A DNA stretch of 61,348 bases, filler included, from Theionarchaea archaeon (lineage in GTDB: Archaea; Methanobacteriota_B; Thermococci; Methanofastidiosales; SZ-28-30), in assembly GCA_018992565.1 (NCBI GenBank). It is 3 parts of 3 records of this genome, joined end to end, with 100 filler letters (N's around TTAATTAATTAA, not from the genome) between each part and the next. Parts side by side here need not be neighbours in the genome. Positions count along the whole stretch, not along the records: positions 41,295 to 61,348 come from JACVGW010000052.1; 2 more parts are not named here. One strand, given 5' to 3'. Both the position numbers and the translations under genes were made by a program. How positions within the stretch are numbered: the first letter of the stretch is position 1; every line of letters starts with the position of its first letter. Under the pieces are notes generated by a model. It had not been told where the DNA came from. It ran no database searches and worked only from the letters and a program-made list of their open reading frames with translations. Shown piece by piece: positions 18,386 to 61,081 of this stretch.

Positions 18386-18389
18386 TACA

Positions 18390-18656
18390 ATGAAAATCAT
18401 TATTCGTGTATTCGGTCCTGAGCCTGGGTGCGCCAAGTGTAAAGGTGCAGAGAAGGTGGCAACTGAAGTAGCACATAAATTCGAGGGTGTGACTGTGAAG
18501 AAGTGTGACGTATTCTCAGACGAGGCTGAAGAATTCGGTGTTATGATGACTCCTACTGTAATGGTCAACGATATCACAGTCGAGGTTGGGAGAATACCTT
18601 CTGCAGGAAAATTGGAAACTATTGTAAGAGAAGTACTGGGAGGTGACACAAAGTGA
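18390..18656 (+). CDS. Small thioredoxin-like redox protein (MTH895 type)
   Basis: GCAKC, GVMMTP, GRIPS; GGAGGTGA RBS. Confidence 0.88.
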   Translation: MKIIIRVFGPEPGCAKCKGAEKVATEVAHKFEGVTVKKCDVFSDEAEEFGVMMTPTVMVNDITVEVGRIPSAGKLETIVREVLGGDTK

Positions 18657-19087
18657 GACATAACTTTGTCCTGCTCTTGATCGTGGTGGTGTTCAGTCTA
18701 TGCATACATGACAGTCCACAGACTGCACCCTCCGGCGCATTGACCGATGTAACACAAGAGAACCAGATTCTGGTAGTCCATTTTCACAGAGTAGCCCAGT
18801 GTACCTGCTGCATAAATGTAGGTGAGTGGGCGGAGGAGACTGTCAGAGAGTTTTTCCCAAGAGAGTTCGAATCCGGGACAATCCAATATCTGGATGTCTG
18901 CGTTGAAGACAATCCAGAGCTGGCCAGCAAGTACAATGCGTATGGCGCTTCGCTATACATCAACATAGTAAAAGAAGGTCGCGACAACATCACTGAAACC
19001 ATGGATGTGTGGCAGTATTGTTTCGATCATGACAACTATGTCAGGGTGATGAAAACAGTGCTTGAGACTGCATTGGAGCAGTTGTGA
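18653..19087 (+). CDS. Secreted or lipoprotein thioredoxin-fold protein (ArsF-like)
   Basis: Signal peptide with Cys; VVHFHRVAQCTCC motif; LASKYNAYGASL. Confidence 0.7.
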   Translation: MRHNFVLLLIVVVFSLCIHDSPQTAPSGALTDVTQENQILVVHFHRVAQCTCCINVGEWAEETVREFFPREFESGTIQYLDVCVEDNPELASKYNAYGASLYINIVKEGRDNITETMDVWQYCFDHDNYVRVMKTVLETALEQL

Positions 19088-19473
19088 ATCGAGGAGGTTG
19101 TTTCTTGCTTGACTGGACACAATCTGTAACCCAGGTTCCATTTATCACTGCCTTCATGCTAGGGTTAGTGACGGCAGTAAGCCCTTGTGCACTGGCTGCC
19201 AATGTATCGGGAGTAGCTTTCATTTCTCGCACCATGATGCTGCCCAGGTATGCGGTTGTGGTGGGACTGCTCATCAGCCTGGGGAGAATTAGCACGTTCA
19301 TGATCATTGGGGGGGTGATGATTGCTACAGGGCACACCATTGGCAGAATTGCATTGCTTTCTCAGACTGCAGGCAGTCTCTTGCTGGGATGTATGCTCAT
19401 ACTTGTGGGAGCACTGTTCCTGAATGTGATATCAGTCGCCCGAGACCTAGGAGGGAACGTCCTTGCTGGCCTC
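19084..19473 (+). CDS. CcdA/ArsG-like membrane protein, 3' end lost in gap
   Basis: AFMLGLVTAVSPCALAAN, GRI, hydrophobic helices. Confidence 0.75.
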
Positions 19474-20981: not shown

Positions 20982-21081
20982 NNNNNNNNNNNNNNNNNNN
21001 NNNNNNNNNNNNNNNNNNNNNNNNNTTAATTAATTAANNNNNNNNNNNNNNNNNNNNNNNNNNNNNNNNNNNNNNNNNNNN
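20982..21081. other. Assembly gap with artificial TTAATTAATTAA linker
   Basis: N run with an all-frame stop linker in its centre. Confidence 0.95.
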
Positions 21082-22887: not shown

Positions 22888-22924
22888 ACCGAAAGCTTTA
22901 TATGCTATCGATTATCAATAATGT
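22888..22924 (+). promoter_or_regulatory. BRE/TATA plus conserved downstream box (copy 1 of 3)
   Basis: ACCGAAAGCTTTATATGCTATCGATTATCAATAATGT; 31/37 identical to 46531-46567. Confidence 0.75.
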
Positions 22925-22967: not shown

Positions 22968-25430
22968 ATGAAGAAAAACCAGACGAACCACAAGAGAGTA
23001 ACCTACTCGCTTTCATTGATAGCACTACTCCTGGTTTCAGGAGTCACGGTGGCATCAGAGTCCGAACTGGATGATCTGCCAGCACTCGTACTGCTGGACG
23101 GAGAAGGCCAAGAGATTCACGCTGTCTGTGATATGATCAGGGATCTTGACGGGGAAGTCATGCATGTATTTCCACCGGAGGTCATTATCGGGAAGTTCTC
23201 TGTGGAGGCAGAAGAGACATTGATTGAAGATTCCAGTATTTCTGTGTACAGAGGGCCAGTAGATATTGAAGATAAGGAGTGGCCCGAGAGTGTGCTGTAT
23301 CCAGTGATTGCATGGAACTACAACTACATGGGATTGTCAGTGGACGCAGGGTTAAATGAGCCCCCCTTGTCTCCAGAACCTCCTCCAGATGATTGTGAAC
23401 TCCTTCCTGACGTTTCATCCTATCTTATGCCCTCTCAGTATGAAGGTGCACTTCCCTATGGAGCAGGATTTCAGGACACCTCAGCGTATATGGTAGGAAC
23501 AGTGGCTGTCAGTGTCTTGTTCCTGGAGAGCAATGGGACAATTGACGAGGAGACAGAGACGTGGACAGAAGAGGAGAAAGTCAACGTGGTCTCAGAGATC
23601 CAGAATGGATTGAACTGGCTGCTCATGCAGGAACCTGCAGCTCATGTGTCTTTTGTGTATGAGTGGCATTTCAATGTACCTGTGGGTTATGAACCAATAA
23701 CGAGACCCCACACTGATGATGACTTGTGGGAAGAGCAGGCCATGCACCACCTGGGATATGGAAGCCCATACTATCTGGTCAATGAGTACACATACCTCAA
23801 TGATCTGCGGAACACGTATGAATCAGACTGGGCATTCATCATTTTCGTGGTGGATGATTCAGAAGATGAAGACAATGCGTTTGCAGATGGATACTTTGCC
23901 TACTCCTTCCTGGGTGGGCCCCGCATGGTTGTCACGTATTCCAACTCCATCTGGGGTATTGCCAACCTGGACTCGGTAGTAGCACATGAGACCTGTCATC
24001 TCTTCTGGGCTTTAGACCAGACATGTGCAAGCGAGGTAGAACAAAGTGAACAATCAGGGTATCTTGCTGGAGAAACTACGAACTCGGAGTGGAATGGTAC
24101 AGCCTGTACTTCTACTGCATCTTCTCTCATGAAAGGAGAACGGATGCTTGACACGCAGATCGAAGTCAGCGCCAGAAAACAACTGGGCTGGAGTGATAGC
24201 GATTCCGATGGAATCCTGGATGTCCTGGATACAGTGCCAACTGTCACACTGATCCAACAGGATGCATCCTGGACAGGGACAGCCAAAGAATCTCCACTGC
24301 CTAACCAGAATCCTTTTGCAGCAGAGAACAGTATCAGCCTGAACACCATTACTGATGTCCAGTACAGAGTTGATCAGGGAGAGTGGGTATCAGCTACTCC
24401 ACAAGACAGCAGCTTTGACGAACCTGAAGAGGCTTTCACTCTTGATTTCATTGTAACTGATCTGGCTGAAGGAGATCACACAGTAGAAATCAAGGCTCAA
24501 AACACTGTGGGAAATTGGAGTCACACAGAGTCGGTGACCTTTACCATTGAAGAACCAGACGATGATGAGCAACCAGTGGGTGACAGCCAGACAGACGATG
24601 GAATAGGTGATACAGAGTCCTCCGAAGACGATGATCAGCCCCTTCAGTGTGAAATCTCAACGAACCTATCAGAAGCTGAACCTGAGGATACGATAACAGT
24701 CACCATGACCGTGACAAACACGGGTGAATCGTGTGCTGAATCAGTGGTACCAACACTTGTAGCTCCCGATGCTGTGACGTTGGTCTCTGGCCCAGAGCCT
24801 GAAACTCTAGCTATTCCCGGAGGAGAGTCAGCAACCTTTGTCTGGGAATANNNNNNNNNNNNNNNNNNNNNNNNNNNNNNNNNNNNNNNNNNNNNNNNNN
24901 NNNNNNNNNNNNNNNNNNNNNNNNNNNNNNNNNNNNNNNNNNNNNNNNNNGCACAGGGCGTGGATTCCAGCACAGGCGATGTTCTGACTGTTCCTGAACA
25001 GAAATCCAACACGCTGACTATTACTGAGGCACAACAGAGCTCAGACGACCAGGACCAGAGTGATCAAGATCAAGACCAGGACCAGAGTGATCAAGACCAG
25101 GACCAGAGTGATCAAGATCAAGACCAGGACCAGAGTGATCAAGACCAGGATTCTCAGTCAGAGTCACCCATCAGTTCCGAATGCACCAAGGTAGAGAGGA
25201 CTATCCAGAAGGTCAAGGATCTACTGAAAGAAGCCAGAACAGAGCTTGAAGAGAAGAAGAAGCAGAACTGGGATGTGAGGCTCTGTGAGAAAATCCTCAG
25301 AGAAGCAGAGATGTACGCAGACCAAGCAGAACTGTACTTCAAAATGGGGAAGTGCAAGGAAGCATCTACCAAAGCAATACAGGCCCTAATGAAAGTTTAT
25401 GAGGTTCTCAGCTGCTTAAATGGACTATAA
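22968..25430 (+). CDS. Secreted multidomain zinc-metallopeptidase-like protein (interrupted by N gap)
   Basis: Signal peptide, AHETCHLFWALD (HExxH), Ig-like domains, DQ-rich linker and helical C-terminal domain. Continuity across 24851-24950 is assumed. Confidence 0.72.
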   Translation: MKKNQTNHKRVTYSLSLIALLLVSGVTVASESELDDLPALVLLDGEGQEIHAVCDMIRDLDGEVMHVFPPEVIIGKFSVEAEETLIEDSSISVYRGPVDIEDKEWPESVLYPVIAWNYNYMGLSVDAGLNEPPLSPEPPPDDCELLPDVSSYLMPSQYEGALPYGAGFQDTSAYMVGTVAVSVLFLESNGTIDEETETWTEEEKVNVVSEIQNGLNWLLMQEPAAHVSFVYEWHFNVPVGYEPITRPHTDDDLWEEQAMHHLGYGSPYYLVNEYTYLNDLRNTYESDWAFIIFVVDDSEDEDNAFADGYFAYSFLGGPRMVVTYSNSIWGIANLDSVVAHETCHLFWALDQTCASEVEQSEQSGYLAGETTNSEWNGTACTSTASSLMKGERMLDTQIEVSARKQLGWSDSDSDGILDVLDTVPTVTLIQQDASWTGTAKESPLPNQNPFAAENSISLNTITDVQYRVDQGEWVSATPQDSSFDEPEEAFTLDFIVTDLAEGDHTVEIKAQNTVGNWSHTESVTFTIEEPDDDEQPVGDSQTDDGIGDTESSEDDDQPLQCEISTNLSEAEPEDTITVTMTVTNTGESCAESVVPTLVAPDAVTLVSGPEPETLAIPGGESATFVWEXXXXXXXXXXXXXXXXXXXXXXXXXXXXXXXXXXAQGVDSSTGDVLTVPEQKSNTLTITEAQQSSDDQDQSDQDQDQDQSDQDQDQSDQDQDQDQSDQDQDSQSESPISSECTKVERTIQKVKDLLKEARTELEEKKKQNWDVRLCEKILREAEMYADQAELYFKMGKCKEASTKAIQALMKVYEVLSCLNGL
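25047..25148 (+). repeat. In-frame tandem repeat encoding an SDQ(DQ)n linker
   Basis: Alternating 27- and 21-bp units GACCAGGACCAGAGTGATCAA(GATCAA), i.e. a 48-bp unit twice. Confidence 0.9.
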
Positions 25431-39787: not shown

Positions 39788-39949
39788 TCCAGCGTGCTGT
39801 ACCCATTCTCTCCACTCTCATTTTCAATCGTTCTTGGACATAGTTATTAATTTACTATGTAATGAATCTATGTTGTTAATCAATAATCCTAATCAACAAT
39901 GCAAACATTTATAAGGAGTGAATGCAATATAATATTTGACGGTGTTGGA

Positions 39950-40375
39950 ATGAAAAAGCTCAGCGAAGTACTTGGAGACAAACTCTCGAAAGAAAAAGGG
40001 CACGCGGAGGAATACTACGAGGATACAGACACCGGTGGCCTTTCCATGTCTCGAGGGTTCAGAGATGTAGATGCTGTCAACTATGAAGAGGACATCCTTT
40101 CAGACGAGTTCTTAGAGTACGGTGTCACCTACGTGAAGCCCGTTAAGCTGAGAAGTCTGGCTGATGTGCAGAAAGTGAACCAGGAACTCAATGAAGGGAA
40201 CATTGTACTGGGCGACATCACTCCTCTGCTCAATAGAGACCCTCAGGAGCTGAAGAGGGCCGTAGATCAGCTGAAAGGAATTTGCAGAGGAATTGGCGGC
40301 GACATTATAGGAATCGGGGAGAGTAAGATTCTGGTGACTCCTACCAATATCCGAATATATAGAAGTAAAGAGTAG
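39950..40375 (+). CDS. sepF: Cell division protein SepF
   Basis: ELNEGNIVLGDI, LKRAVDQLK, GGDI, ILVTP; conserved adjacency to ZPR1. Confidence 0.88.
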   Translation: MKKLSEVLGDKLSKEKGHAEEYYEDTDTGGLSMSRGFRDVDAVNYEEDILSDEFLEYGVTYVKPVKLRSLADVQKVNQELNEGNIVLGDITPLLNRDPQELKRAVDQLKGICRGIGGDIIGIGESKILVTPTNIRIYRSKE

Positions 40376-40996: not shown

Positions 40997-41033
40997 TCAT
41001 TATTGCTAATCAACACTATATAAAGTTTTCGGT
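40997..41033 (-). promoter_or_regulatory. BRE/TATA plus conserved downstream box (copy 2 of 3)
   Basis: Reverse complement ACCGAAAACTTTATATAGTGTTGATTAGCAATAATGA; 34/37 identical to 46531-46567. Confidence 0.8.
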
Positions 41034-41194: not shown

Positions 41195-41294
41195 NNNNNN
41201 NNNNNNNNNNNNNNNNNNNNNNNNNNNNNNNNNNNNNNTTAATTAATTAANNNNNNNNNNNNNNNNNNNNNNNNNNNNNNNNNNNNNNNNNNNN
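41195..41294. other. Assembly gap with artificial TTAATTAATTAA linker
   Basis: N run with an all-frame stop linker in its centre. Confidence 0.95.
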
Positions 41295-46455: not shown

Positions 46456-46497
46456 TCCGTTCCTTCCCTCATGATAAGGGTTTTTCTCTGATAATCT

Positions 46498-46511
46498 ACT
46501 ATGAGGATAGT
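46498..46511. promoter_or_regulatory. Palindromic operator ACTAT-N4-ATAGT
   Basis: CTACTAT-GAGG-ATAGTTG about 20 nt upstream of the BRE; the same core occurs at 56730, 61107, 61161 and 61194. Confidence 0.65.
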
Positions 46512-46530
46512 TGGTAGTACCTCCTTTCTT

Positions 46531-46567
46531 ACCGAAAGATTTATATAGTATTGATTAGCAATAATGA
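46531..46567 (+). promoter_or_regulatory. BRE/TATA plus conserved downstream box (copy 3 of 3)
   Basis: ACCGAAAGATTTATATAGTATTGATTAGCAATAATGA ending 3 nt before the ATG at 46571 (probably a leaderless transcript). Confidence 0.8.
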
Positions 46568-46570
46568 TCT

Positions 46571-46948
46571 ATGAGGTTGAAGAGGAACATTGGTGATGCA
46601 AAGTACGAAACGACATTTCTCCTCAGACCCGTAGATGGTGTTGGAGAAAGCATGAAAGCAGTGCTCAAGTGCATCTTCTGGAGAAAACCCGAGCTTTCAG
46701 AACCTGCTTTGGAATTCCTTGAGTTTATCAAGGAGAAAAAGGGCGTTGATGATAGTCTGTGGGAGACTTTCTGCCAAGATACATCCATCACCCGGGGTCA
46801 GTATGACAGCATAATCAAGAAGCTGAGAGGCTCTGGATTGATCTACAAGAGAGACAGTACCTGGATGCTTTCCGATGACTTCATGGAGTTCCTTCAGACT
46901 GTGCTTCAGATAGCAGAACACTGGAAGATCGAGGGTGAGTATCAATGA
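46571..46948 (+). CDS. Winged-helix-like protein
   Basis: ITRGQYDSIIKKLRGSGLIYKR..W.LS pattern; ATGA overlap with the giant surface protein gene. Confidence 0.65.
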   Translation: MRLKRNIGDAKYETTFLLRPVDGVGESMKAVLKCIFWRKPELSEPALEFLEFIKEKKGVDDSLWETFCQDTSITRGQYDSIIKKLRGSGLIYKRDSTWMLSDDFMEFLQTVLQIAEHWKIEGEYQ

Positions 46949-49900
46949 AAAAAGCTATCCCTCTGCTGCTGCTGGTGCTTCTAGCTGCTGCACAGGTGAA
47001 TTCGCAGCAAGATACCAGTGTTCCCCAGTATCTTGACTTTGATGATCAAATTCTGATAATGAGAGAATCTCTCCGTCAGGACAGGATTGAAATGATTCGT
47101 TCAGAACGGTTTGAGCCCAATGAGTGGTTTGCTGACGTCTATGCACCCACCGGTCTTGATTACTTCTTCCAGGCCCCTGCAGGAAATGTCATGCAGAATC
47201 CTTCGGCCACCTTCTATGGAAGGCAAATCCTCCTTGGCCCCAATTCCTTGTATATGATAATAATCTACGATTTTGAGCATGATTCAATAATTGAAGCTGG
47301 AGAATGGAAAGACATTAATGGAAACTTCATTGCAGAGGACGAAGAATGGTTCGACGAGAATACAGACAATATCAGAGACTTCGGAGAATGGACAGATTTC
47401 AATGGAAATGGAATTGTAAACCTCGGGGAACTTGCTGACGTAAATGGAAATGGAGTCTTCGATATTGGTGAATGGCATGAAGGAAAGAACACAGATGGAG
47501 ACCCCACAAACAACCTGCCGGGGGAATACAATGGAGCTGTTGATCCCAATGAATGGATTGGGATGAACCTTGATCGATCTATCACAAAGAAGCTGGCCCT
47601 GAAAATTTATAAGAGAGTTTACACGGCAACCTCCCCCATATGGAAGGAGATGGATTATGAGAAATATATCTATCCCACATATCCTGAAAGAGTGGTCCAG
47701 CATCCAGCATTGAGATCCATGACTGCTCTCACTGACAATCAGAAACTGGTATTACTTTTGAGACTTGAAGACTGCGAGCGCTGTGAGATAGTGGGGGATG
47801 TCGCTTGGTATGAGGATGAATTCGCACGGATCGTATTCAACTTCCAGGGATTTACCAGAGAAACACTGCACACTACCCTTCCCCGCTGTGAAGGATGCTA
47901 TCAGGCCATTGTATCTCATTACGCTGAACTCCAGATCTATATCCACGAAAAGTATGAATTGCTGTACGAAGATTTTTATCTGCATTCTGTGGAGCCCAGA
48001 GGACTTCCTGACAATCCCGACGGGACAACCGGATACTACTATACCCCAGGGGACGAGATGAATCGAGCGGACAGGTATGAAAGGAGAATTCGTTCTCTTG
48101 TGAGTTTCGATCCATATTATCTCATCATTCGAGACAATAACGAAATGGTGCTCTATGAGACGCTCTATGGAAAAGCCCTGATAGTCCCCTACGACAGCAA
48201 AGAAGAGGAGTATGGTTCCCATATATACGAACGTAAATATCCGGACGGCACAGAGAAGGACATCCGGATAGAAGTAATCCATGTTTATCAGATCGAGACA
48301 ATATTCTGTGAACAGGTGCTGGTAGCCCGGCTGCTCATTGATGAAGACATCGAGGCCTACAACACGTCAAGTATTGACCCTGATGAGAAGGTATTCACCG
48401 TATTTTATTATGCCTGCGATAACCACTTTGAGAACAATGTCATCTTCCCGGAAGAATACGATAGAGGTCTCTCTGACTTTGGTATCATTGTAGAGAAGAT
48501 CGAGTTGGAAGAGGAAAAGGTCTGGTTGAAATTCGTGAGAGAAGTGGAATCTGAGAGAATTCCTAACCCAGCAGCATTCCTTTTTGGAACTCAAGATTAC
48601 CAGATAGTGTTTGATGAACTGGACCGGGATAGGCCCCTGGGAATGTGTGATTACTATGACAAACAGGAAAGGAATATTCCACGTTTTGAAAAGATACTGG
48701 TAGATGTGTCTCTGCCGTACCGGTTCCTGCTGAATAATGCAGTCCTGAAATATGAAGATCTGAAGGGAAATCCCAACGAACTTGCTTCTTATGAGGAACA
48801 GCCCTGGGAAATGAGTGAATGGAACACAGAAGTGACCATTCTGCAGCTGAAAAAGATAGCTTATAACCCCAATGCTGCGGACTACACGGGGCTGGGTTAT
48901 GACGATGTTCCTTTGTACAACTTTCCTCTGAATCCAGCTCCAGGGTTGGTGCAGGTAGGCACTGACCTACTGCCCAATTTTCAGATTTCTGATGAGGATT
49001 TCTCTGGAACCTGTGTTCCCGGAGACACCATTACGTTCTACATTGAGGTGTACAATGGATCCGGCGGTCCTCTCTCAGTGCAGGTGCAGGATGATGTGCC
49101 TGGGGGAGTCTATACAACCCCGGCAATGATTCCAGCGCCAGGCACTATCCCGAATGACACAAATGGAAGTGGGATTTTAGGAGATGCTGGAGACTTGGTT
49201 GTGTGGAACATCCCCAACCTCCCTCCAGGGTATACCTTACTGTCATACGATGTTGTAGTTGTTTCTGACGGGACTATTGGCTTTGGAGGAAATATCACAA
49301 ATGATTGGTGCGTTGCATACTACTTTGAAAGCGGAATTCCCAGGACAGCTTCTGCCCATGCGATTCAAATACTTGTTCAATCTGCCCAAATCGTAAAAGA
49401 GCCTTTCGCAGACGTGGCATGCACCATTCCAGCTCCCACTGTTCTCCCAGGAAGTAGGCTGTATTACAGGCTTACTGTCTACGATACAGTCGTGGACCCA
49501 TTGAGCCTCTATCATCCGCAGATTATCGAGGTTTCCGACGCCATACCTAGTCCCACCGTTAATCCCCAATACCATGTCTCATTTCCTGGACTGACCCCTC
49601 AACCAATAGTACAAGACATTGTCTTGTGGCAGGGGCTGAATGCATTGGGATCAGGTGGTTCCATGACAGGAGTTTACAGTGTTTTTGTCCCTGCAGGATC
49701 TGCAGGAACTATCACAAATGATGCAACAGTCACCTACATTGTCCCCTTCCCACCTCCTGGAGCAACCACAGTGACAGCAGTGAGTAATCAGACAGAAACA
49801 TGGATTGTAACACAGTTGTCGCAGATAACGGAACCACTGGAACCCTGCCTCTTCATGAGCATTAGCAAAGAAGGTCCTGCATCACAGGCAGGTGGGACTA

Positions 49901-52900
49901 TACGATATGAGATCAATGTAGCCAACAGAGGATCTGGACCCTATGCAGATGCTTTCAACATCGTAATCATTGATAAGATACCACAATTTGCATCCGGCCC
50001 GGTTAATATTCTGTCCACCAATCCACTTGTGACCTGGACTACCCATGATACTGATGGTGATCTCGTAGATGACGTTATTGTGTGGAAGCTCGACCAGCTT
50101 TCAGCGGGTGCGGATTTTAAGTTGACATTTGAAATCAATATCCAAACCACCGAAGTCCCTTACAACTGCTACATGATCAAAGTGTTCACCTATGATCTAT
50201 ACAAGCAGGAAGAAGATCGATATCTGGGAATGGGAGGCATTTCCAGGGTCGATGACTATAAGATCTCTCCCACTGACATGACTGAGGTAATCAAAGATTC
50301 GGTATTCACCCAGGTCATGAAAGGGGCTGAAAAGCTTGAAAACTATTTGATACGAGTCTTTGAGAGCAGGATCTACAGTAAGGAGTTTTTCTTCCAGTTT
50401 GTGGAGTTCAATGAAAAGGAAAGATCTGCACGATTCAAGATGTTTGATCGCGTGAAATCCGATCTGGACATGAATGTCTACTGGGGAGTTCTGGAACAGT
50501 CCACCCTGGAGACTGGCTCTGCTCAGATTTATTCTGATGATACCTTCCTGGCTCACGTCTTGCTGAGAAACGATGGAACAGGGACTATTTCTGACATCTC
50601 CTATGAGCTGGACGCTCCCGATCTCTCTCCTGTAGATATGACCTGGGAGTATAATATTGAGCAATACCTGGATCTGGATATCGGCCCGGATGAACAAGCA
50701 GGGCTCGTCTTTCTTATGAAAGCGCCCCAGGTATCTCACGAGACGACCTTTCCACTGAAGGTAAAGATAACGTATACTGATGAAAGGGGCACCAGAAGTG
50801 ACACCAAGACTGCATATCTTAATGTCCTTGCCCAGAGACGAGCCAACGTCCAGATAAAGAAGAGCATTCTTGAAGGAAAATCAGTGGTAAAAGAGACAGG
50901 AAAAGAAGTGGCTGACCTGCGAGTCGGGGAAGAGCGGACTATTGTGGCATATATCCAGAACCTGTCAGAAGATGAAATCGAACAGGTCCACTTCATAGAC
51001 CAGATTCCAGAAGGGCTGGAAGTGATTGAAGGAGATGCAGAATGGATGGGAGCGCTCAAAGCAGGAGAAACAGTAAAAGTAACTTATAAGATCAAGGTAA
51101 AACAGATTGGAATATATCAGTTCAGAGGAAAGACCTTCTACAAAGATGAAAAAGACCACGTATATGAGGGGATCAGCAACATTACTGAAATCAGGGTAAT
51201 AACAGCTCCCGGACCCAAATTAAATCGAGAAGTTGACACCATCATCGTATCCAAAGGAGACGTCATGACAGTAGTCATCAGAGTGGAAAATGACACTTCC
51301 ACTACTCTGGAAAAAATCCAGGTGGTTGACATCGTACCAGAAGGATTTCAAGTGGAATCTCTGGAAACCAAGGGGCTAGAAGAAGACAATGGAGCAATTC
51401 GGTTCTATATCGATGATCTAAAGCCGAACAAGTACGTTCTCATAGAATACACGCTGAGAGCAGGCGATAAGGCCGGAAAATTCGTACATAAAGGAGTGAG
51501 GCTGGCATATGAAAATGGGGATGGTCTCAAGGAGGAAATATTGACTGAAGACAAGGAATTGCTTATTCCGGAGACCGAAACACCCAACATCTCAATGAGT
51601 TATGCCCTACGAAGAAAGATAGATTCAGATGGCGAATATGTCACAGCGGTACTCACCCTGTCGAATTCCGGCGGGATCGCAGCCAAAGATATAAAGGTAG
51701 TCACTCCGCTCCTGGAAGGAACAGCGTTCGTGGAAGCATCCACCAACTACCTGGAGGAAAATGGGATAATGCAGTTCACGGTGGACGAAATCGAGGCAGG
51801 AGAAGACTTCACTGTCAAGTACACCTTCAAAGTTCCACACTTCAGCGCGGACAGAACCTATGCTCTGGATTATGATGTCCTGTACTCTGACGACTTTGAC
51901 AGAGAATACGCAGGACAACTGGAAGGGGAGCTTGAAGTACGAGCTCAAAAGCCCCTCTTAAGAGTCACTAAAGTCATAGAAAAGAATGCAGTCAAGCTGA
52001 ACTTCTCGGTGAGGGTGGCTGTGAATATAATAAATGAAGGGGAAATTGCAGCGGATACCCAGGTCAGCGACCCGCTGCCTGAAGGGATGGTTCTCCTATC
52101 AGGTACCAACGCATGGGAAGGCAGGCTGGAACCAGGAGAGTCTGCTCAGATCATGTATGAAATTCTGTGCACCCGGGTGGGAACGTATGCACTCCCCCAA
52201 GCTGCTGCCAGTTACCATGATAGGTGGCAGATCGATTATGTTGCAGAATCTGATCCTGCGAATCTGCTCATACGAGGAATACTGATCGAAAAGGGCGCAG
52301 ATGTTACTTCCCTGAAGATAGGAGAGGTAGCCGTTGTGACAGTGACAGTCACCAATACATATGACGAGCGGGCAACCAACGTGGTGGTAGAGGACATGAT
52401 CTCTGAGGAACTCACCCTGGTGGAAGGAAACCCTGGTTGGAATATTGGGGTCCTGAACCCTGGTGAATCAGTGACCTTCACCTATTCTCTCAAACCCACA
52501 AAAGCGGGCACCTTCAGTCTGGGGCCTGCCAGAGCCACCTTCATCGATGTATATAATGACAAACATGAGTCCACTTCAGGTTCAGTGACTATTCAAGTAG
52601 AAGAAATGGTGCCTCCAGAAACGAAACCTCCCACCTCGACTCCTCCTGAAGAAAAAGAAGAAGGAATGGGACGAAAAGTAGTTGAATCCTTCGATATTGC
52701 CATGATTCTGTGGATAGTGCTCATACTGTTCATCTCCATGGTTGTTGCATTCCTGCTGATAGAAAGGCGGAGAACGGAAGAAGAGGAGTACTATGAGTCG
52801 GAGGAAGTTCCCTCTCCACCCCGTGAAGCTGTGTACAAGAGAGGAGAAGAAGAAAAAAAGGCTCTCCCTACACCAGAGGAGCGTGCAGAAGCGGAAGAAG

Positions 52901-53623
52901 AAATAACGCCACTGGATGTTCTGAAAAGAAGGCGAGCAACTATAGAAGAAAAGCGAGAAAAAGTGGGCAAGGTTGCTGAAACCAGAGATGTGCATGAACT
53001 CCTGGGGAAAGAAGAAAGAGAAGCCAAGATGGCCCCCGAGGAATTCGAGTTTGGTAGAGGAGCTGAAGAATTCGAGTTTGGTAGAGGAGCTGAAGANNNN
53101 NNNNNNNNNNNNNNNNNNNNNNNNNNNNNNNNNNNNNNNNNNNNNNNNNNNNNNNNNNNNNNNNNNNNNNNNNNNNNNNNNNNNNNNNNNNNNNNNACTC
53201 CTGGGGAAAGAAGAAAGAGAAGCCAAGATGGCCCCCGAGGAATTCGAGTTTGGTAGAGGAGCTGAAGAATTCGAGTTTGGTAGAGGAGCTGAAGAGTCAA
53301 AGGGCAAGACACAGCTTGTGGATGAACTGGGTCTCGAAGACCTGTTCGTTGAAGAACAGTCAGGAACCCCCGAAACCCGTCCATCAGAATTTACTGATGT
53401 CCGTGACATTCTCAGAATGCCAAAAGAAAGAGAAGAGCCCAGCCCAAAAGAGGAACCTTCAAACTGGAAATCAGAAGAACCAAGCCATGAGTTCCTTGAC
53501 ATTCATGAGATCATAAAGGGACCTAAAAAGGAAAAAGAAGAGAAAAAGCCGGCCACAGTGAACCATGAGGAAGAAGATGATGAGGATTTTGATCCCCGAG
53601 ATATACTGAAGAAGACAGATTGA
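46945..53623 (+). CDS. Giant single-pass cell-surface protein (DxNGNG repeats, DUF11/BatD-like Ig repeats, TM helix, acidic cytoplasmic tail); about 2160 aa once the gap duplication is removed
   Basis: Signal peptide; DxNGNG..DxGE repeats; many V.N.G...V.D.IP.G repeats; TM segment IAMILWIVLILFISMVVAFLLI. The frame resumes after the gap and runs to the stop at 53623. Confidence 0.85.
52998..53295 (+). repeat. 99-bp duplication flanking the N gap, containing 27-bp EEFEFGRGA tandem units
   Basis: 52998-53096 is identical to 53197-53295. Confidence 0.9.
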
Positions 53624-53785
53624 TGCATATCATGTGGCAGCTTTCGAAAGAAGTCCCTGTGTTTGACCAATTTGGTTCTTGCGATAGTAAATCTTGAAGG
53701 CTTCTGGCCAAGTTCTGCGAAGTGCACCAGGATGTATCAAAGCGAAAAAGGAAACCTTTTTATTGCCCTACTGCAGGTTCACTAT

Positions 53786-54532
53786 ATGCAGTATTTCAAG
53801 ACTGGAATCAAGGGGTTTGATATCATCATGGACAAAGGTCTTCCTGATAGGACCACTATTATTCTTCACGGACCCCCTGGTACTGGAATCCGTGTTTTCG
53901 GTCAGCAGTTCGTCTATTCTGGACTTCAACTGGGAGCCCATTGTATCTATTTCACTTCAGAAAGATCAAGCGGAGAGATAATAGACGATATGAAGTTCTA
54001 TGAATGGGATGTTGAAAAGTACGTTGAAAAGAAGCAGCTCACCTTCATTGATGCTTATACTACGAGATATGAAAAGAGCTATTCTCAGGATCTAGATATC
54101 TTCAAAGAGCTGGTGTGGGATGTGGGTGCGTCCAATCAGTTGCGCCTGGCGTTGGGTAAACACCTGGAACAAATGGCTGGTCAGAAAGGAACTGAAGTAC
54201 GCTGCATGATTGATTCTCTGTCATCACTATTTCGTACGGAAAACCCTGAGGACGTCATCGATCTTTTTGAGATTATTCAAATGGATGCTAAAAAATACGG
54301 AGGAATATACTTATTCATACTGGATAAGGGAGTCCATGATGAACGACTGGTAAACACCTTGCTGTATCTGGCAGATGGGATCTTTGACTTCAGTACTAGA
54401 GAACGAGGCTCAGAACTTGAACATGTGATGCGAGTCCAGAAACTGAAAAACATGATCTTCTCCACTAAATTGATTCCCTACATTATCAGCAAGGAAGGAG
54501 TTGTAGTGGAGACCACAGAGCGGATCATCTAG
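53786..54532 (+). CDS. KaiC/RAD55-like RecA-fold protein with degenerate Walker A
   Basis: KTGIKGFD, GPPGTGIR (no Lys), FIDAY, IDSLS, YLADGIF, RVQK. Confidence 0.85.
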   Translation: MQYFKTGIKGFDIIMDKGLPDRTTIILHGPPGTGIRVFGQQFVYSGLQLGAHCIYFTSERSSGEIIDDMKFYEWDVEKYVEKKQLTFIDAYTTRYEKSYSQDLDIFKELVWDVGASNQLRLALGKHLEQMAGQKGTEVRCMIDSLSSLFRTENPEDVIDLFEIIQMDAKKYGGIYLFILDKGVHDERLVNTLLYLADGIFDFSTRERGSELEHVMRVQKLKNMIFSTKLIPYIISKEGVVVETTERII

Positions 54533-55639: not shown

Positions 55640-55834
55640 CCAGTCATCCAATAATACAGTATGCGGTGGATAACCTTGACTCTCTGTCGGCGATGCATAC
55701 ATCAGGTGTGCTCAGGTATTGCACTATCCGACTCTTACCCCCTGCATTTGTACCGCCGTTACAAAGCCTCATCTCTGATGGTCAGGGATGAAGCATGGGA
55801 AAAAGCTTTTATACAGCAGAAACCAAAAGACGTC

Positions 55835-56266
55835 ATGCGGAAGTTTTCGGATGAAGAGCTTTTGGAGTTTCATCGGAAAGGGCTGACAGACAGGGAGATC
55901 AGCGAGAAACTGGGTGTGACTCAGGCGGCTGTCAACTATCGCCGTGAAAAATTGGGCCTGGAAAACAACTACAAGCCCATCACGTTTTCAGACCAGCAGC
56001 TGCTCACCCTGTACAATCAAGGCTTGAATGATAGGGAAATCAGTGAAACTCTGGGCGTAACACAGGCTGCTGTAAATTACAGAAGAGGGAGACTAGGACT
56101 GGCGTCCAATTATATACCCGAAAGGATTTTCCTGACTTTGTATGAGAAAGGGCTGTCCAGCGAAGAAATCGCTCATGAGCTGGATGCTCCACTTCCAGCA
56201 ATTCTGCATAGGATGAAGAAACTCGAGATCGTTTCAGAACATGGGGTAGCTGAGGCTGAGGTCTGA
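55835..56266 (+). CDS. Protein with three tandem HTH repeats
   Basis: GLTDREISEKLGVTQAAVNYRR, GLNDREISETLGVTQAAVNYRR, GLSSEEIAHEL; TTTTATA box upstream. Confidence 0.85.
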   Translation: MRKFSDEELLEFHRKGLTDREISEKLGVTQAAVNYRREKLGLENNYKPITFSDQQLLTLYNQGLNDREISETLGVTQAAVNYRRGRLGLASNYIPERIFLTLYEKGLSSEEIAHELDAPLPAILHRMKKLEIVSEHGVAEAEV

Positions 56267-56941: not shown

Positions 56942-59900
56942 ATGGCAACCACAAAAAGAAAAGTCAACGGTCTTCTCATATGCGTGCTTCTAGCAGGAAG
57001 CATGATCATACTGAACTCGAGAGAAGTAGCAGCTCAGAGTATTGGAGGTACTGTATACGAAGACTCCAATATGAATGGTGTCTTTGATGCAGGTGAGAGT
57101 CCCCTTACGGGTGGAACAGTTTTTCTCGATCATCCTGCTGGAACCTCCGTCCCCATTGGCGGAGGTGGTGTCTACAATCTAGCCACTTCTATGGGATACC
57201 ATTGGGTAACAGTACGCATCCCGGGTTACAAGCAAGTAACTAAGAATGTCAATGTGACAGGTGCCATGACGGTGAACTTTGGAATGGTGCCTTTTGAGTC
57301 CGTAACAGGAAGAGCAGTGAAGACAGATGGCACTGGTGTCGTAGGTATGCACGTAGAAGTCTATGATCAGACATTCACCTTTGTGATGGAAGCATACACT
57401 GATGCTTTTGGGAATTACTGCATCCATGGGTTGCCTCCAGGCATCTACAACTTGCGCATTCAAAAGGCGGAATACTTCGACCAGTGGAAATATAATATCA
57501 GAGTGGATGGAATCACCGTCAGTGGTACGCAGTACAACTGGCACACTACATCCAACATCGATTTCACCAACCTGAGTTACGACCACGGAATGGTCTTCGG
57601 AACTGTGAACAGCGGAGGAAATCCTTTGCCTGGAGCAGTGGTGGAAGTTCCTGGCCTTGGGTTGAGTACTACCACAGATGCTTTCGGGAACTACAATATC
57701 CACAACATTCCCGCGGGCTGGTTCTACATTGTGGCAAAGAAGACGGGGTACCAGACTGGCGTTGAACTGGTCTGCGTCACTAATGGGACTACTGGTCCCA
57801 CAGGGCCCACTGGCTTTAATCTTGTTACAGCCACTGGATTGCCCATCATTGAAGGATCAGCTACCGATGGGCAGCAGGCTATTGAGAATGCACTGGTGGA
57901 AATACCCGGTCTCGGATGGTCATATGGAACTGGACTGGAGATCTACACGGATAAGGCGGGGTTCTACATCTTCGCTGATTATGCTGCCAGTAATTCATAC
58001 ACTACCCATCCTCTAACAGCAGGGAAATTCAACATTGTGGTTCGCAATGAAGCAGGAAGCGTTACTGATGAAAGCGATAATCACCACAAGACCAATGCTC
58101 GCATTGTTGTAGCCCAGATGGGGCGAGTAACGGTAGCTGATTTCAGGCTGGAAGAGAACTATGGCATCAAATTCGGGCGCGTGATCAACACAGATGGAAT
58201 TGGTGTTGAAGGAGCTACTGTTTATGTCCCCTACTCTCCGTACAAGACGGTGACAGATAGTAATGGGGTCTTCGCCATGAAGCTGCCTTCTGAAACCTAC
58301 TCTGAGAACTGTGACTCAGTAATACTGCCCTACCAGACCAACAGAGGATTCGACGAAATGACCTACTGTGGTATGACAGATACCTTCCAGACAAGCTGTA
58401 CTGGGACTCCTCCAGACTGCCATCGAATGCATAAGGCCCGTTACCTCATCAAAGCTGAAAAGGCATCGTATGTCGTAACGCTGGAATATTATATACCCGT
58501 TCCTGGAGGACCAGGACTTGCCAATCCTCCTGATCCTTGTGAGTTGTGTGAAAACGGCATCATTCTCAACCATAGGGCAGGAATTCTCAAAGGACAGGTA
58601 TATGATGCGGGTGGAATGCCTGTTACCAATGGATTTGTATTTGTTGCAGGACGTGATGTGCCCCTGCTAGCTAACGGGTACTTCGAGGCCCATGATATAC
58701 CGCCGGGAATCTACACTGCGGCAGTGATTGATCCTACCAGGACAATTCTCGGCACAGAGACAGGGATTTATGTCTATCCCGACCAGATTACCTATCAGAT
58801 TATCAACCTCAGTGCTACCCCCACTACGCACTTCATATCAGGATTCATCTACAGCAACAAGGTGATACCTGATGGTGCTGGAAACATGATTCCTGACACC
58901 AATGGATACTCAGCAGGTGCATCTTTCGATCCGGGAGAAGGAATTTACGGAGTAAAAGTGGAGACTACTGCAAATTCCAGTTACTATGCAGTGACCGACA
59001 GCCATGGATTCTACTGTATCACAGGAATTGATACAACAATAACAGCCACCACGATCGTAGCTGTAAAGACTGGATATATTACTATTGCCAATCCCTCAGT
59101 GACTCCCACTTCTGTCCTTGTACTCTTTCCTGGATTTGCTGGAACTTCCGGGGCCACTGTATCTCCTATGAGCAAATTCAGAGGCACTCTATCAGGCAGG
59201 GTGACCAATGAATCTGGAAGAGACGTATCCGGCGCCATAGTCAGCATCTGGGAACCTGCAGAGATCATGGATGAAACCGACACAAATGGATTCTACATCT
59301 TTGATGATGTGGAATATGGCTCGTACCTGGTCAAGGTGTGCGGCGGAGGAACATGCGGTATTGACTATCAGGTAGCTTTCAGCCAGGGTTCCTACGCGCC
59401 TGTGACTGTCAATGGAAATGTGACCAAAGACATTACCATGGAGAAAATGAGAGGCAGAGTGGAGGGAATAGTGGATGACGGTGCCAATCCCCTGGTGGAT
59501 GTTGCCGTAAGAGTATCTGGAATGTATGCTGCCTCCACAGACAGTGCAGGGTACTACACTGTATTGAATGTTCCTTCAGGTACACACACAGCCTATGCCT
59601 ATGCCTATGGATACATCCTGCAGAAGCACAACAATACAGACCAGAGCATCGGTATCGTCGGAGGACAGATAGCTACAGCAAACTTCTCATTGGCTGCTGG
59701 AATTATGAGCACTGGATGGGCAGATGGGTACATAACCCTTGAGCTCACTGATGGATTCTGCAATATCGTGGCCAGACTTAACCCATCCTATGATTTCTCC
59801 ACTACAGACAGTGAGGGATACTATCTCATTACCAACATTAACAGTGGTACCCAGTATTACGTACATGGTGAACGTGCCAACTATGAAGTCTCAGCGGCAG

Positions 59901-61081
59901 GTCCCTTCGCAGTGAGCGCGGGGACGGGAACACGTGTAAGTGTCATTCATCTCAGACGGTGCACAGGTACCATCGATGGATACCTCACAGATTCCCAGAG
60001 TGGAGCGCCTATAGTAGGAGCCACAGTCAAGCTTTCTGACATGAACAGGAACAATGAGGTTTCCCTGTGGTCCCCCGGTGTCAATTACTACACTGACTAC
60101 AACAGAACCCAGATATACCAGACTACAACCGACTCTCTTGGGTACTATCAATTCACCTATGTCCCATGGAACGACGCGAATACCTCCGGATTGAACAAGA
60201 CATGGGCATGGAGCGTGGTAGTCATCAAGACGGGATATGCCGTGGGCACCAGCAATGCCGCAGTTGTATGTGGATCCACGAGTACCGTGAGCTTTACAGT
60301 TGATCCATTGTGTGGAGTTTCGGGCACAGTGGCCTTTGATATCTTGTGTGCCGCCACAGCTACGGTGACTGCTACTCAAATTGCTGGTGGAGAAGAAGGA
60401 CTCACTGAGTTTGGCTGGTCCACCAATGGTGTAGCCACAGTAACCACCAATGGAGGTACGTACTACATCGGCCATCTGCATCCTGGAGCCTTCGATGTGA
60501 CAGCAGCCGCAGGTAGCTGTTCCATGAGCAGTCCGTCTACACCTTACACGGGAGCCAACGCGGTGCCTCTGAACTACAGGAAGACGACACCTAATATTGA
60601 CTTCGGATTTGGTCTTATTAGTTCATCAAGTCCGGTGTCTGGATCATCTGGATCTGGTGCAGGAACTGGCTCTAGTTCGGATTCCAGCGGTAGCTCAGGT
60701 TCTGAATCTGGTGATCAAGGATCTGAAGGTGAAGGAAGCCAAGACAGTGGATCAGGGAGCTCTGGTAGTGGAACCACCACGACTCCTTCGCAGGGTCAAT
60801 CTCAGACTCAAGAGACTGAAAGAGGAACCTACTATAACAGACTGCTCAAAGAGGTTGCAGGAAATGTCATCATACAGGCAAGAGCTCTAAGAAACAAAGT
60901 CTACGAAATGCTGGAACCTGTAGATACCATCCCAGAGAACATAAAACAGATGCTAATACTGGCAGATTCCAACCTAGAGAATGCAGAGACGGCCCTTACC
61001 CAGGAGAACTACATAGACGTCCTCAAATTCGCACAAATAGCCATCAATTACTACGAGAAGATCCTTCAAGAACTCACTTAA
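56942..61081 (+). CDS. Secreted surface protein with about 12 carboxypeptidase-regulatory-like (prealbumin-fold) repeats, Ser/Gly linker and helical C-terminal domain
   Basis: Signal peptide; recurring G.V.D..G..V.GA.V...TD..G.Y.I; SG-rich linker at ~60620-60810; no C-terminal TM segment. Confidence 0.88.
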   Translation: MATTKRKVNGLLICVLLAGSMIILNSREVAAQSIGGTVYEDSNMNGVFDAGESPLTGGTVFLDHPAGTSVPIGGGGVYNLATSMGYHWVTVRIPGYKQVTKNVNVTGAMTVNFGMVPFESVTGRAVKTDGTGVVGMHVEVYDQTFTFVMEAYTDAFGNYCIHGLPPGIYNLRIQKAEYFDQWKYNIRVDGITVSGTQYNWHTTSNIDFTNLSYDHGMVFGTVNSGGNPLPGAVVEVPGLGLSTTTDAFGNYNIHNIPAGWFYIVAKKTGYQTGVELVCVTNGTTGPTGPTGFNLVTATGLPIIEGSATDGQQAIENALVEIPGLGWSYGTGLEIYTDKAGFYIFADYAASNSYTTHPLTAGKFNIVVRNEAGSVTDESDNHHKTNARIVVAQMGRVTVADFRLEENYGIKFGRVINTDGIGVEGATVYVPYSPYKTVTDSNGVFAMKLPSETYSENCDSVILPYQTNRGFDEMTYCGMTDTFQTSCTGTPPDCHRMHKARYLIKAEKASYVVTLEYYIPVPGGPGLANPPDPCELCENGIILNHRAGILKGQVYDAGGMPVTNGFVFVAGRDVPLLANGYFEAHDIPPGIYTAAVIDPTRTILGTETGIYVYPDQITYQIINLSATPTTHFISGFIYSNKVIPDGAGNMIPDTNGYSAGASFDPGEGIYGVKVETTANSSYYAVTDSHGFYCITGIDTTITATTIVAVKTGYITIANPSVTPTSVLVLFPGFAGTSGATVSPMSKFRGTLSGRVTNESGRDVSGAIVSIWEPAEIMDETDTNGFYIFDDVEYGSYLVKVCGGGTCGIDYQVAFSQGSYAPVTVNGNVTKDITMEKMRGRVEGIVDDGANPLVDVAVRVSGMYAASTDSAGYYTVLNVPSGTHTAYAYAYGYILQKHNNTDQSIGIVGGQIATANFSLAAGIMSTGWADGYITLELTDGFCNIVARLNPSYDFSTTDSEGYYLITNINSGTQYYVHGERANYEVSAAGPFAVSAGTGTRVSVIHLRRCTGTIDGYLTDSQSGAPIVGATVKLSDMNRNNEVSLWSPGVNYYTDYNRTQIYQTTTDSLGYYQFTYVPWNDANTSGLNKTWAWSVVVIKTGYAVGTSNAAVVCGSTSTVSFTVDPLCGVSGTVAFDILCAATATVTATQIAGGEEGLTEFGWSTNGVATVTTNGGTYYIGHLHPGAFDVTAAAGSCSMSSPSTPYTGANAVPLNYRKTTPNIDFGFGLISSSSPVSGSSGSGAGTGSSSDSSGSSGSESGDQGSEGEGSQDSGSGSSGSGTTTTPSQGQSQTQETERGTYYNRLLKEVAGNVIIQARALRNKVYEMLEPVDTIPENIKQMLILADSNLENAETALTQENYIDVLKFAQIAINYYEKILQELT

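Follow-up and report, generated by a model that had tools for sequence, protein, structure and literature searches.

The tail that a giant archaeal envelope protein appears to extend into the cytoplasm raises the question of what such a tail is for. Archaeal surface proteins are generally treated as passive, outward-facing molecules that end a few residues past their membrane anchor. The DNA considered here, referred to as the window, is a 61,348-nt stretch from a Theionarchaea archaeon (GenBank assembly GCA_018992565.1) in which a small winged helix-turn-helix (wHTH) gene, a gene for a giant stalked protein and a gene for a KaiC-like protein follow one another on the same strand. An earlier reading of these genes, made from sequence alone (the sequence-only reading), described an adhesion-receptor-like architecture with a cytoplasmic docking tail, possibly a trans-envelope adhesion or signalling module. 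We find that the giant envelope protein carries a predicted cytoplasmic tail of 160-300 amino acids (aa) in three diverged lineages. The explanation we favor, and to which we give about as much credence as doubt, is that the tail of this protein, the major stalked envelope protein or an adhesin of its lineage, serves to dock partners in the cytoplasm, the neighboring KaiC-like pseudo-ATPase (pseudo-KaiC) being the prime candidate. The genes and the parts of the giant protein on which this explanation turns lie at the following positions of the window.

46571-46948, + strand: winged-helix protein of 125 aa, AF_0843-like family; its stop codon overlaps the start of the giant gene (ATGA)
46945-53096, + strand: giant type I surface protein, part before the assembly gap, aa 1-2050
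52696-52764, + strand: single transmembrane (TM) helix, about aa 1918-1940, followed by ERRRTEEE
52765-53096, + strand: tail, part before the gap, with islands LPTPEERAEA, TPLDVLKRRR and RDVHELL and with EEFEFGRGA repeats
53097-53196, no strand: scaffold gap of 100 N, artefactual; the two contig ends share 99 nt that include a 27-nt tandem repeat
53197-53623, + strand: tail, from the gap to the stop codon, with islands ELGLEDLF, FTDVRDILR and LDIHEIIKGPKK and the C-terminal DFDPRDILKK
53786-54532, + strand: single-domain KaiC-family pseudo-ATPase of 248 aa; its P-loop, at 53870-53893, reads GPPGTGIR

A signal peptide at one end and an Arg cluster just past the TM helix at the other (ERRRTEEE, in agreement with the positive-inside rule) argue for an N-out, C-in topology, which would place everything after the helix in the cytoplasm. 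This segment is 218-220 aa long, contains 25% Glu, has a net charge of -26 and ends in ...KKTD, as expected from the charged intracellular tail of over 200 aa that the sequence-only reading had described. That reading also held that orthologs without the tail would speak against it, and none was found. Among 24 homologs of the giant protein, 21 are full-length and of the Theionarchaea type (2148-2214 aa; 63-88% identical by BLASTP and 62-87% in a full-length alignment), and all 21 keep the tail, at 201-278 aa. The TM helix is complete in 20 of them, the hydrophobic segment of P0008 being shortened; late starts in P0008 and P0024, which lack a signal peptide, are probably gene-call or assembly problems. 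Giants of the type represented by P0027 and locus L042 are 33% identical and 2436-2441 aa long, and have tails of 300-303 aa with similar motifs. The giants of a sister family (1824-1855 aa, 26-30% identical) bear charged tails of 157-163 aa in six of six cases, and these are conserved among themselves at 74% mean column identity.

Within the Theionarchaea type, the mean majority-residue fraction is 0.60 in the tail, against 0.69-0.86 over the blocks of the ectodomain, and conservation of at least 0.95 is found in islands: ERRRTEEE, LP.PEER, TPLD, LEDLF.EE, FTDVR.IL, DI.E.IKG and F.PRD.LKK, the last of which is the C-terminal end. Variable acidic linkers and an EEFEFG-type repeat lie between the islands, several of which are retained in P0027. 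Composition suggests that the tail is largely disordered, and its retention in all orthologs, together with the islands, indicates that it is under selection. A motif of the form D[IVL][RHK][EDQ][ILVFM][ILVMF] occurs one to three times per tail, compared with 0.00-0.01 times in shuffled sequences; because this motif was defined post hoc, its conservation among orthologs and not the comparison with shuffles is the real evidence. Conserved islands in a fast-evolving, apparently disordered linker look like docking motifs, and we therefore read the tail as a docking platform. A search for the tail on other, shorter proteins returned five matches and no different kind of protein, so that a mobile "tail cassette" was not found among them: four matches are consistent with fragments of the same family on short contigs, and the fifth, P0102, is the post-gap piece itself and identical to it.

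One island was also considered as a possible relative of the FtsZ C-terminal "GID" motif (PMC8178401). The two FtsZ proteins of this genome (L077 and L078) end in ...LDLGIEFL and ...YLGIDEVEYGR, which loosely resemble ELGLEDLF (window 53300-53330). The Gly of that island is unconserved among the tail orthologs, and the likeness stands only as a weak speculation. By analogy with other archaea, the C-terminal peptides of the organism's own FtsZ proteins would bind SepF.

The tail is interrupted in the window by the 100-N gap, which raises the alternative that the post-gap part and the KaiC-like gene belong to another locus. The window is a pseudo-molecule of at least three contigs of a metagenome-assembled genome (MAG), in which three 100-N runs are scaffold gaps, and contig-joining linkers of the form N44-TTAATTAATTAA-N44, with stops in six frames, stand at 20982-21081 and 41195-41294. 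Since the linkers separate contigs, genes on either side, such as that for SepF (39899-40375) and those of the giant-gene locus, are not physically linked; the locus itself lies on a single piece of 20,054 bp (window 41295-61348; G000:C137). Near it are archaeal genes for SRP54, SepF, the PAN proteasomal ATPase and a class I LysRS, and close homologs of the giant protein carry the source names "Theionarchaea archaeon" and "Candidatus Methanofastidiosia archaeon". A gap inside a gene in a concatenate of contigs is what a foreign post-gap segment would look like, and none of the public contigs examined bridges it; they stop at 53070 and 53266, at the 27-nt repeat. The reading frame of the giant gene runs to 53096, however, and the 99 nt preceding the gap are the same as the 99 nt following it (52998-53096 duplicated as 53198-53296), an overlap of a kind that is absent from the flanks of the other two 100-N gaps of the window. 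Both flanks contain the 27-nt tandem repeat (53041-53096 and 53240-53295), which encodes EEFEFGRGA and belongs to the EEFEFG-type repeat whose copy number and exact unit vary among orthologs (about two to four copies). This repeat broke the assembly, in the scaffold and in the public contigs alike. A continuous, near-identical form of the protein, P0004, is encoded on a 38.5-kb contig and has exactly two copies of the 9-aa repeat; it is listed at 100% identity, with one tail residue differing from the window translation. Its length of 2159 aa agrees with the "about 2160 aa" of the sequence-only reading. The giant gene is likewise continuous in five other Theionarchaea-type loci with unchanged gene order. 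The gap is thus a pair of overlapping contig ends that the scaffolder left unmerged, the segments on its two sides are parts of the same gene, and an origin of the second in another locus, a point on which the sequence-only reading had left itself open, is effectively refuted.

Conservation of the gene order was assessed in 22 loci fetched with a wHTH profile, 10 from 185,579 species genomes and 12 metagenomic, which were annotated by tblastn; the counts suggest more independence than there is, some loci being from organisms that are nearly identical. In 20 of 21 assessable loci the giant gene comes directly after the wHTH gene (L035, which breaks off within wHTH, is left out of the count), and of the 11 loci long enough to show what follows the giant gene, 10 have pseudo-KaiC there on the same strand: five of five of the Theionarchaea type and five of five of the sister family, the miss being L042. 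The synteny whose absence from relatives would have told against the sequence-only reading is therefore present, with L039 and L042 as exceptions. Theionarchaea-type loci have the order PAN, luciferase-like oxidoreductase, Zn-ribbon protein, wHTH, giant, pseudo-KaiC, flavin adenine dinucleotide (FAD) oxidoreductase and triple-HTH protein. In the sister family, DUF7266, a PilB-type ATPase, two TadC/T2SSF genes and three pilin-like genes precede the wHTH and giant genes, and a coiled-coil protein of about 140 aa, pseudo-KaiC, a canonical KaiC and a metallo-beta-lactamase-fold protein follow, all on one strand, with the giant, coiled-coil, pseudo-KaiC and KaiC genes overlapping or abutting. In that family, the module makes up the distal half of a type IV pilus operon. 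The coiled-coil gene (at 7819-8250 on the - strand of L016; also in L034, L044, L046 and L047) overlaps the giant and pseudo-KaiC genes; the Theionarchaea type has no such gene and a tail that is 60 aa longer.

This arrangement bears on the possibility that the module is a type IV pilus accessory, in which the giant protein would be a pilus-associated adhesin or anchor with a tail contacting the motor complex, and pseudo-KaiC, together with the sister family's active KaiC and coiled-coil proteins, would act on the PilB-type ATPase much as ArlH and ArlX do in the archaellum. All five complete sister-family loci join pilus genes and module on one strand, the L042 type has TadC, pilin-like genes (DUF7266 and DUF7289) and three Big_1 proteins within 10 kb upstream, and KaiC-family proteins are associated with archaeal type IV pilus loci (PMC4858521). 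Against these stand the genome of the window, in which a PilB, TadC and prepilin-peptidase core lies on contig C142 without wHTH, giant or pseudo-KaiC genes, and two queries with sister-family pilin-like genes, which gave no match in that genome (88% complete). In addition, the six Theionarchaea-type loci that extend beyond the giant gene and over its downstream neighbor (the window and five others) all have housekeeping genes upstream, either PAN and the luciferase-like oxidoreductase or at least the latter. We regard a pilus accessory as unlikely.

The distribution of the two small genes follows the same two families, labeled f1 and f2 here. Strong wHTH matches occur in three of three genomes of genus g1 of f1 (that of the window included) and in six of six of f2; there were none in 17 f3 and 7 f4 genomes of the same order, nor in genome G003, and Thermococcaceae-like genomes gave weak helix-turn-helix matches only. 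Pseudo-KaiC orthologs (E ≤ 1e-70) are present in three of three f1 genomes (that of the window excluded) and six of six f2 genomes, and in 0 of 17, 0 of 7 and 0 of 7 genomes of f3, f4 and f5. In G003 the pseudo-KaiC gene lies 43 bases from a contig start, its upstream neighbors being unassembled. By these matches, wHTH and pseudo-KaiC co-occur in the same two families.

The KaiC-like protein, whose gene likely starts at 53786, matches PF06745 (E 2.6e-34; 119 bits, cut-off 26.6), and its closest solved chains are the single-domain archaeal KaiC-like proteins PH0284 (E 1.3e-20), SSO2452 and PH0186. In place of the GxxxxGK[ST] Walker A sequence of active KaiC proteins it has GPPGTGIR, in line with the missing lysine reported in the sequence-only reading, and the P-loop Lys/Thr is absent from all ten orthologs (GPPGTG[IV]R in six, GPPGSG[VF]S in four). 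Aligned with them, three of three canonical paralogs read GTGKT. The Walker B Asp (D143, in an hhhhDS motif) is invariant among the orthologs. Identity between orthologs is 78-95% within the Theionarchaea type and 43-45% when those of the sister family are compared with them. These alignments indicate that the gene encodes a conserved pseudo-ATPase and is not a decaying gene. A dead KaiC beside the giant gene in two families, accompanied in one of them by an active KaiC and a coiled-coil protein inside a pilus operon, is an obvious candidate partner or adaptor for the tail. A complex prediction of pseudo-KaiC with the wHTH protein and the tail (aa 1941-2159), with an alignment for each, scored 0.00 in two runs and speaks neither for nor against such a contact. 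Catalytically dead KaiC paralogs form a small family in the genome of the window: two others, at G000:C8:55077-55799 and G000:C129:4185-4919 (L079 and L080), are 39% and 33% identical and read GSGAE and GCGFE.

The first gene of the module overlaps the second at 46945-46948, where the TGA of the wHTH gene shares the ATG of the giant gene, as the sequence-only reading had noted, and a Shine-Dalgarno-like GAGGGTGA lies just 5′ of that ATG. We propose that the giant gene is translationally coupled to the wHTH gene. Pfam yields only a sub-threshold GMT-wHTH match for the 125-aa protein (E 0.05); in the ESM Atlas it adjoins clusters labeled "AF_0843 family" (PF27297) with a feature score of 0.96, an assignment that rests on Atlas label and similarity and not on a match to the PF27297 hidden Markov model. 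A profile of eight orthologs retrieved 74 representatives at E ≤ 1e-3 among 1.84 billion cluster representatives, nearly all of 100-140 aa. An AlphaFold2 model built on a 54-row alignment has a predicted local distance difference test (pLDDT) score of 90.6 and shows the three-helix core of a winged helix (helices 40-56, 61-71 and 75-88), a beta-hairpin wing (91-100) and, at the C-terminus, a long helix. Winged-helix regulators, including a Pyrococcus ArsR-like protein, MarR/HpaR proteins, ST1889 and Sso10a, make up most of the top Foldseek rows (probability 0.94-0.99, with weak E values of 0.03-0.1); a few rows come instead from the winged-helix domains of methyltransferases, of a helicase and of a replisome entry. 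Weak TrmB matches were obtained for 8 of 54 family members. At the level of the modeled fold the term "wHTH-like" is correct, and DNA binding may be predicted from the model. The protein is 50% identical between the two families, and its close orthologs (at least 50% identity) occur only beside giant-protein genes, within this archaeal order.

Such constancy could reflect a membrane-tethered switch, in which the tail sequesters the winged-helix protein in the manner of an anti-sigma factor and releases it upon attachment or Ca2+ sensing. No pair of genes is as constant as wHTH and giant (20 of 21 loci), their start/stop overlap is found in all lineages, and a conserved candidate operator lies 5′ of the promoter. 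Yet the tails differ wholly between the families and the wHTH protein stays 50% identical, which argues against a conserved interface between the two; binding of the wHTH protein by the tail would itself be putative. We consider a switch of this kind very improbable.

The promoter of the operon comprises three elements. The sequence-only reading had placed two recurring elements of the window in it without naming them, and two that recur, the BRE/TATA and the 17-nt element, are there.

46490-46517, + strand: upstream element, 17-44 bp 5′ of the BRE/TATA; possibly a regulator site
46531-46547, + strand: transcription factor B recognition element and TATA box (BRE/TATA), ACCGAAAGATTTATATA; operon promoter, with the ATG about 24 nt downstream
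46551-46567, + strand: 17-nt element TTGATTAGCAATAATGA between TATA and start codon; second exact copy at 40997-41013, - strand

The upstream element is unique in the window at up to three mismatches and is largely conserved in eight of eight f1-type loci and not in L042; its position is that of the usual archaeal activator site. The BRE/TATA (46534-46547) has seven matches in the window at up to two mismatches, against 0.32 expected, and is nearly invariant in nine aligned loci, one position differing in L042; the sister-family form is ACCGAAAGATTTAAATA. Because the ATG lies about 24 nt past the BRE/TATA, the transcript is probably leaderless. The 17-nt element has four window matches at up to three mismatches (0.27 expected) and six sites genome-wide, compared with none for a reversed control. 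The stretch between about -50 and the ATG hardly varies among eight Theionarchaea-type loci and L042, yet the proteins have diverged to about 65% identity. The cassette formed by BRE/TATA and 17-nt element looks like a strong shared promoter, and its sites may constitute a regulon or may drive unannotated RNAs. Sites in the window are at 46531-46567 (+), 40997-41033 (-) and 22891-22924 (+), and further ones are at C151:9163-9179, C6:9608-9624 and C127:3638-3654 of the same genome (G000). Among the sites other than that of the operon, one precedes a signal-peptide protein of more than 499 aa, one a 32-aa open reading frame (ORF), and two only short ORFs of 55-80 aa and doubtful reality; the 17-nt site L052 has no matching BRE/TATA upstream, and an Rfam scan of the other cassette sites gave no family match.

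The organism is uncultured and widespread, near-identical DNA being present in 18 public runs from six coastal and sediment studies (marine sediment, estuary, mangrove and "soil"), some of which may be the source of the assembly. Seven metatranscriptome contigs of 114-234 nt, from two libraries, all fall within the giant gene; six match the window exactly, and the seventh has three differences over the part that fits. They cover only 5 and 3 of 30 bins in the two libraries, so the uncovered parts are uninformative, and they are a weak hint of transcription, with DNA carry-over a possibility.

Outside the membrane, the giant protein is built as follows.

46945-47007, + strand: Sec-type signal peptide, aa 1-21, recognized by inspection and present in 19 of 21 orthologs
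47311-47472, + strand: three EF-hand-like 12-residue loops, aa 123-176, interleaved with GEW
48982-50124, + strand: first run of immunoglobulin (Ig)-like domains, about aa 680-1060, from AlphaFold2, DUF7927 and Foldseek
50842-52614, + strand: Ig stalk of the DUF11 (CLIPPER) type, about aa 1300-1890, with a Pro/Thr/Glu-rich linker between it and the membrane

The signal peptide, DxNGNG/GEW repeats, Ig-like (DUF11-type) stalk and single TM helix of the sequence-only reading were all seen, and "adhesion-receptor-like architecture" is a fair description of the domain order. The N-terminus looks signal peptide-like by eye (MKK, a hydrophobic run and QVNS/QQ). Loops fitting the pattern D-x-[DN]-x-[DN]-[GF]-x-h-x-x-x-[DE] begin at aa 123, 151 and 165, with one of three GEW beside each, and are probable, though putative, Ca2+ sites; this block has a majority-residue fraction of 0.86 across orthologs and is missing from the sister-family giants, whose alignment begins at about aa 265. 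DUF11 (PF01345) matches five stretches (E 6.6e-39; 133 bits, cut-off 24.6), the best at aa 1781-1856, so that a tandem DUF11-type stalk is combined with a secretion signal and a surface anchor as in DUF11 adhesins. Other Pfam matches include DUF7927, BatD, CARDB and more, with those to DUF7927, DUF7507 and DUF7619 below their own cut-offs; none was found in aa 1-700, and no PGF-CTERM or sortase motif was seen by eye. AlphaFold2 modeled aa 1-1150 (12-row alignment) at a mean pLDDT of 47, with 70-90 over the first Ig run, for which Foldseek matches adhesin Ig stalks and integrin alpha legs. Homology to integrin alpha was considered and rejected: integrin alpha ectodomains lead the Foldseek matches of the aa 1-1150 model (E about 1e-12), but the TM-score is 0.10-0.12 and the model is poor, and the matches most likely reflect tandem Ig domains.

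These features raise the alternative that the giant is a plain S-layer protein, its tail having a structural role (as a spacer, a membrane or cytoskeleton anchor, or an assembly or sorting signal) and the wHTH and KaiC-like genes being mere neighbors. It is a giant, single-copy, Ig-rich, TM-anchored protein, other DUF11 matches in this genome being confined to three frames of 170-826 aa; its head (0.82-0.86) is as conserved as the stalk, unlike that of many variable adhesins; its promoter is very strongly conserved and uses a cassette found genome-wide; and the RNA-library contigs, as a weak indication, fall only inside its gene. A 292-kDa Pyrobaculum S-layer protein offers a precedent. A lattice role would nevertheless be a candidate one, the tails of colossal S-layer proteins are short and basic in contrast to the 220-aa acidic tail with conserved islands found here, and the order of wHTH and pseudo-KaiC genes is kept across families at 26-30% giant-protein identity, which is hard to explain without a functional link. 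A plain S-layer protein seems to us possible but rather doubtful. Were the giant only that, it would extend the "colossal" Ig-rich S-layer architecture to a euryarchaeal lineage.

With architecture and synteny solid, we infer a mechanism that would run as follows. A strong, conserved and probably leaderless promoter would drive the winged-helix gene and then the coupled giant gene. The giant would most likely be the lineage's major surface protein, a fibrillar adhesin or S-layer-like, with an extracellular head (bearing, in this lineage, the putative Ca2+ loops) on a stalk of about ten Ig-like DUF11/CnaA-type domains. The tail islands would most likely dock cytoplasmic partners, and pseudo-KaiC, having lost its nucleotide-binding residues, would act as an adaptor on the tail, tying surface attachment to the KaiC-type regulatory circuits found with archaeal type IV pili and archaella; the transcriptional side would fall to the winged-helix protein. 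The three genes are best explained as an envelope module that is specific to Theionarchaea and one sister family. Of the earlier proposal of a docking tail in a trans-envelope module, the architecture stood and came through each test set against it; docking and signalling are what one may suppose from it.

Several findings weigh against a tail that docks pseudo-KaiC. The link between tail and partner is itself something we infer. The strict motif is absent from six of six sister-family tails, and hhalign gives the tails of the two families a probability of 0.1%, with no detectable similarity; with unrelated tails and no strict motif, a common docking code for pseudo-KaiC is unsupported, and by sequence it is the long cytoplasmic tail as an architectural feature that is conserved, its sequence being lineage-specific. 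L042, whose tail is the richest in motifs, has no KaiC-like gene within 2.7 kb downstream. L039 has a wHTH gene without a giant gene. The genome has about 19 KaiC-family matches, including at least two further paralogs without the Walker A Lys in other contexts, which makes adjacency to one of them less telling, and the spacer of 162-466 nt between the giant and pseudo-KaiC genes in the Theionarchaea type leaves room for a separate promoter. The genomes in which the genes co-occur are kin, and the pattern represents perhaps two evolutionary events. For an adhesive function in particular, the head (aa 1-630) is modeled only at a pLDDT of about 25.

The same architecture also admits an integrin-like, two-way trans-envelope receptor, in which attachment or Ca2+ would change the occupancy of the multivalent tail and so switch type IV pilus activity and the winged-helix-dependent transcription of an envelope regulon sharing the promoter cassette. 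Candidate occupants would be pseudo-KaiC as an adaptor (together with an active KaiC) or else a protein of the cytoskeleton or of cell division. We think this improbable; if true, no giant adhesin or S-layer protein of a prokaryote would have been seen before to signal through a long cytoplasmic tail. Returning to the docking platform, the tail would provide a testable handle on how surface events such as attachment or lattice state are coupled to cytoplasmic regulation, and would bear on the role of dead archaeal KaiC paralogs and on the link between KaiC "hubs" and pili.

Other features of these loci deserve mention. In L039 (2813-5675), a metagenome contig, the wHTH gene (84% identical) has an HTH_24-type gene copy as its neighbor on either side, and the locus is either rearranged or a chimeric contig. 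In L042, an AbiEi/AbiEii toxin-antitoxin pair (18008-19443) occupies the position of pseudo-KaiC. Downstream of the module in the window, a 201-aa ORF (55661-56266) has three HTH units in tandem, in which the string LGVTQAAVNYRR recurs; those Theionarchaea-type loci that reach it conserve it 3′ of the module, and translation probably begins at an internal start (relatives have 143-149 aa). The window encodes two more large secreted proteins, one of 1379 aa with six CarboxypepD_reg domains (56942-61081) and one of 820 aa with no Pfam match (22968-25430). Both lack a C-terminal TM helix, and the 820-aa gene has a promoter cassette with three mismatches; a likeness of their C-termini by eye was dropped when BLASTP found no alignment.

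The giant protein is most readily compared with bacterial and archaeal fibrillar adhesins, for which DUF11 is described in PMC12617251 as "CLIPPER", a CnaA-like isopeptide-bond stalk domain. It shares with them a signal peptide, a non-repeat N-terminal head, a tandem stalk of DUF11/DUF7927-type CnaA-like domains and a C-terminal anchor. It differs in that its anchor is a TM helix with a 220-aa acidic tail, with no sortase or archaeosortase signal, and in that its head matches no Pfam adhesive domain. "Colossal" S-layer proteins of Thermoproteota, according to bioRxiv 10.64898/2026.08.21.746120, are single polypeptides in which lattice region, Ig stalk and TM anchor are brought together, and in the Pyrobaculum protein PySLP (292 kDa) 19 Ig-like domains are combined with a TM helix at the C-terminus. 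The giant is of the same size class, a single polypeptide with a possible distal region, an Ig stalk and a C-terminal TM helix. The tail of PySLP, as described there, is short and basic and ends in Lys, whereas that of the giant has 220 aa and a net charge of -26 and ends in Asp; the two come from different phyla and are likened by architecture, not by homology.

As for its proposed partners, AF_0843-family proteins resemble the winged-helix protein in size (about 110-140 aa) and fold. KaiC-family ATPases appear as recurrent predicted regulators in archaeal type IV pilus loci (arCOG01171-01175; PMC4858521), the KaiC-like CirA represses archaellum genes (PMC10983859), and interactions are reported between the KaiC homolog ArlH and the archaellum motor ATPase ArlI and, within the motor, of FlaH with both FlaX and FlaI. 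Pseudo-KaiC has the single-domain KaiC/RecA fold of such regulators and, in the sister family, stands in a type IV pilus operon beside an active KaiC. Unlike in ArlH and CirA, its P-loop Lys/Thr is replaced in ten of ten orthologs, which makes ATP-dependent behavior unlikely; unlike ArlH and FlaH, it has no archaellum genes (an arl or fla cluster) on its 20-kb contig. Its setting 3′ of a giant surface-protein gene (10 of 11 loci) sets it apart from the KaiC regulators of archaellum clusters. To integrin alpha the likeness is one of analogy: a head with putative Ca2+ loops, Ig-like legs, a single TM helix and a tail with candidate docking motifs, the difference being that the giant matches no FG-GAP, VCBS or beta-propeller family in Pfam and has its three loops within 54 residues. 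Our literature searches found no description of the wHTH/giant/pseudo-KaiC module, a prior mention at the arCOG level being possible, and we rate as new here a DUF11-stalked giant envelope protein with an unprecedented long, conserved tail and a dedicated pair of pseudo-KaiC and winged-helix proteins.

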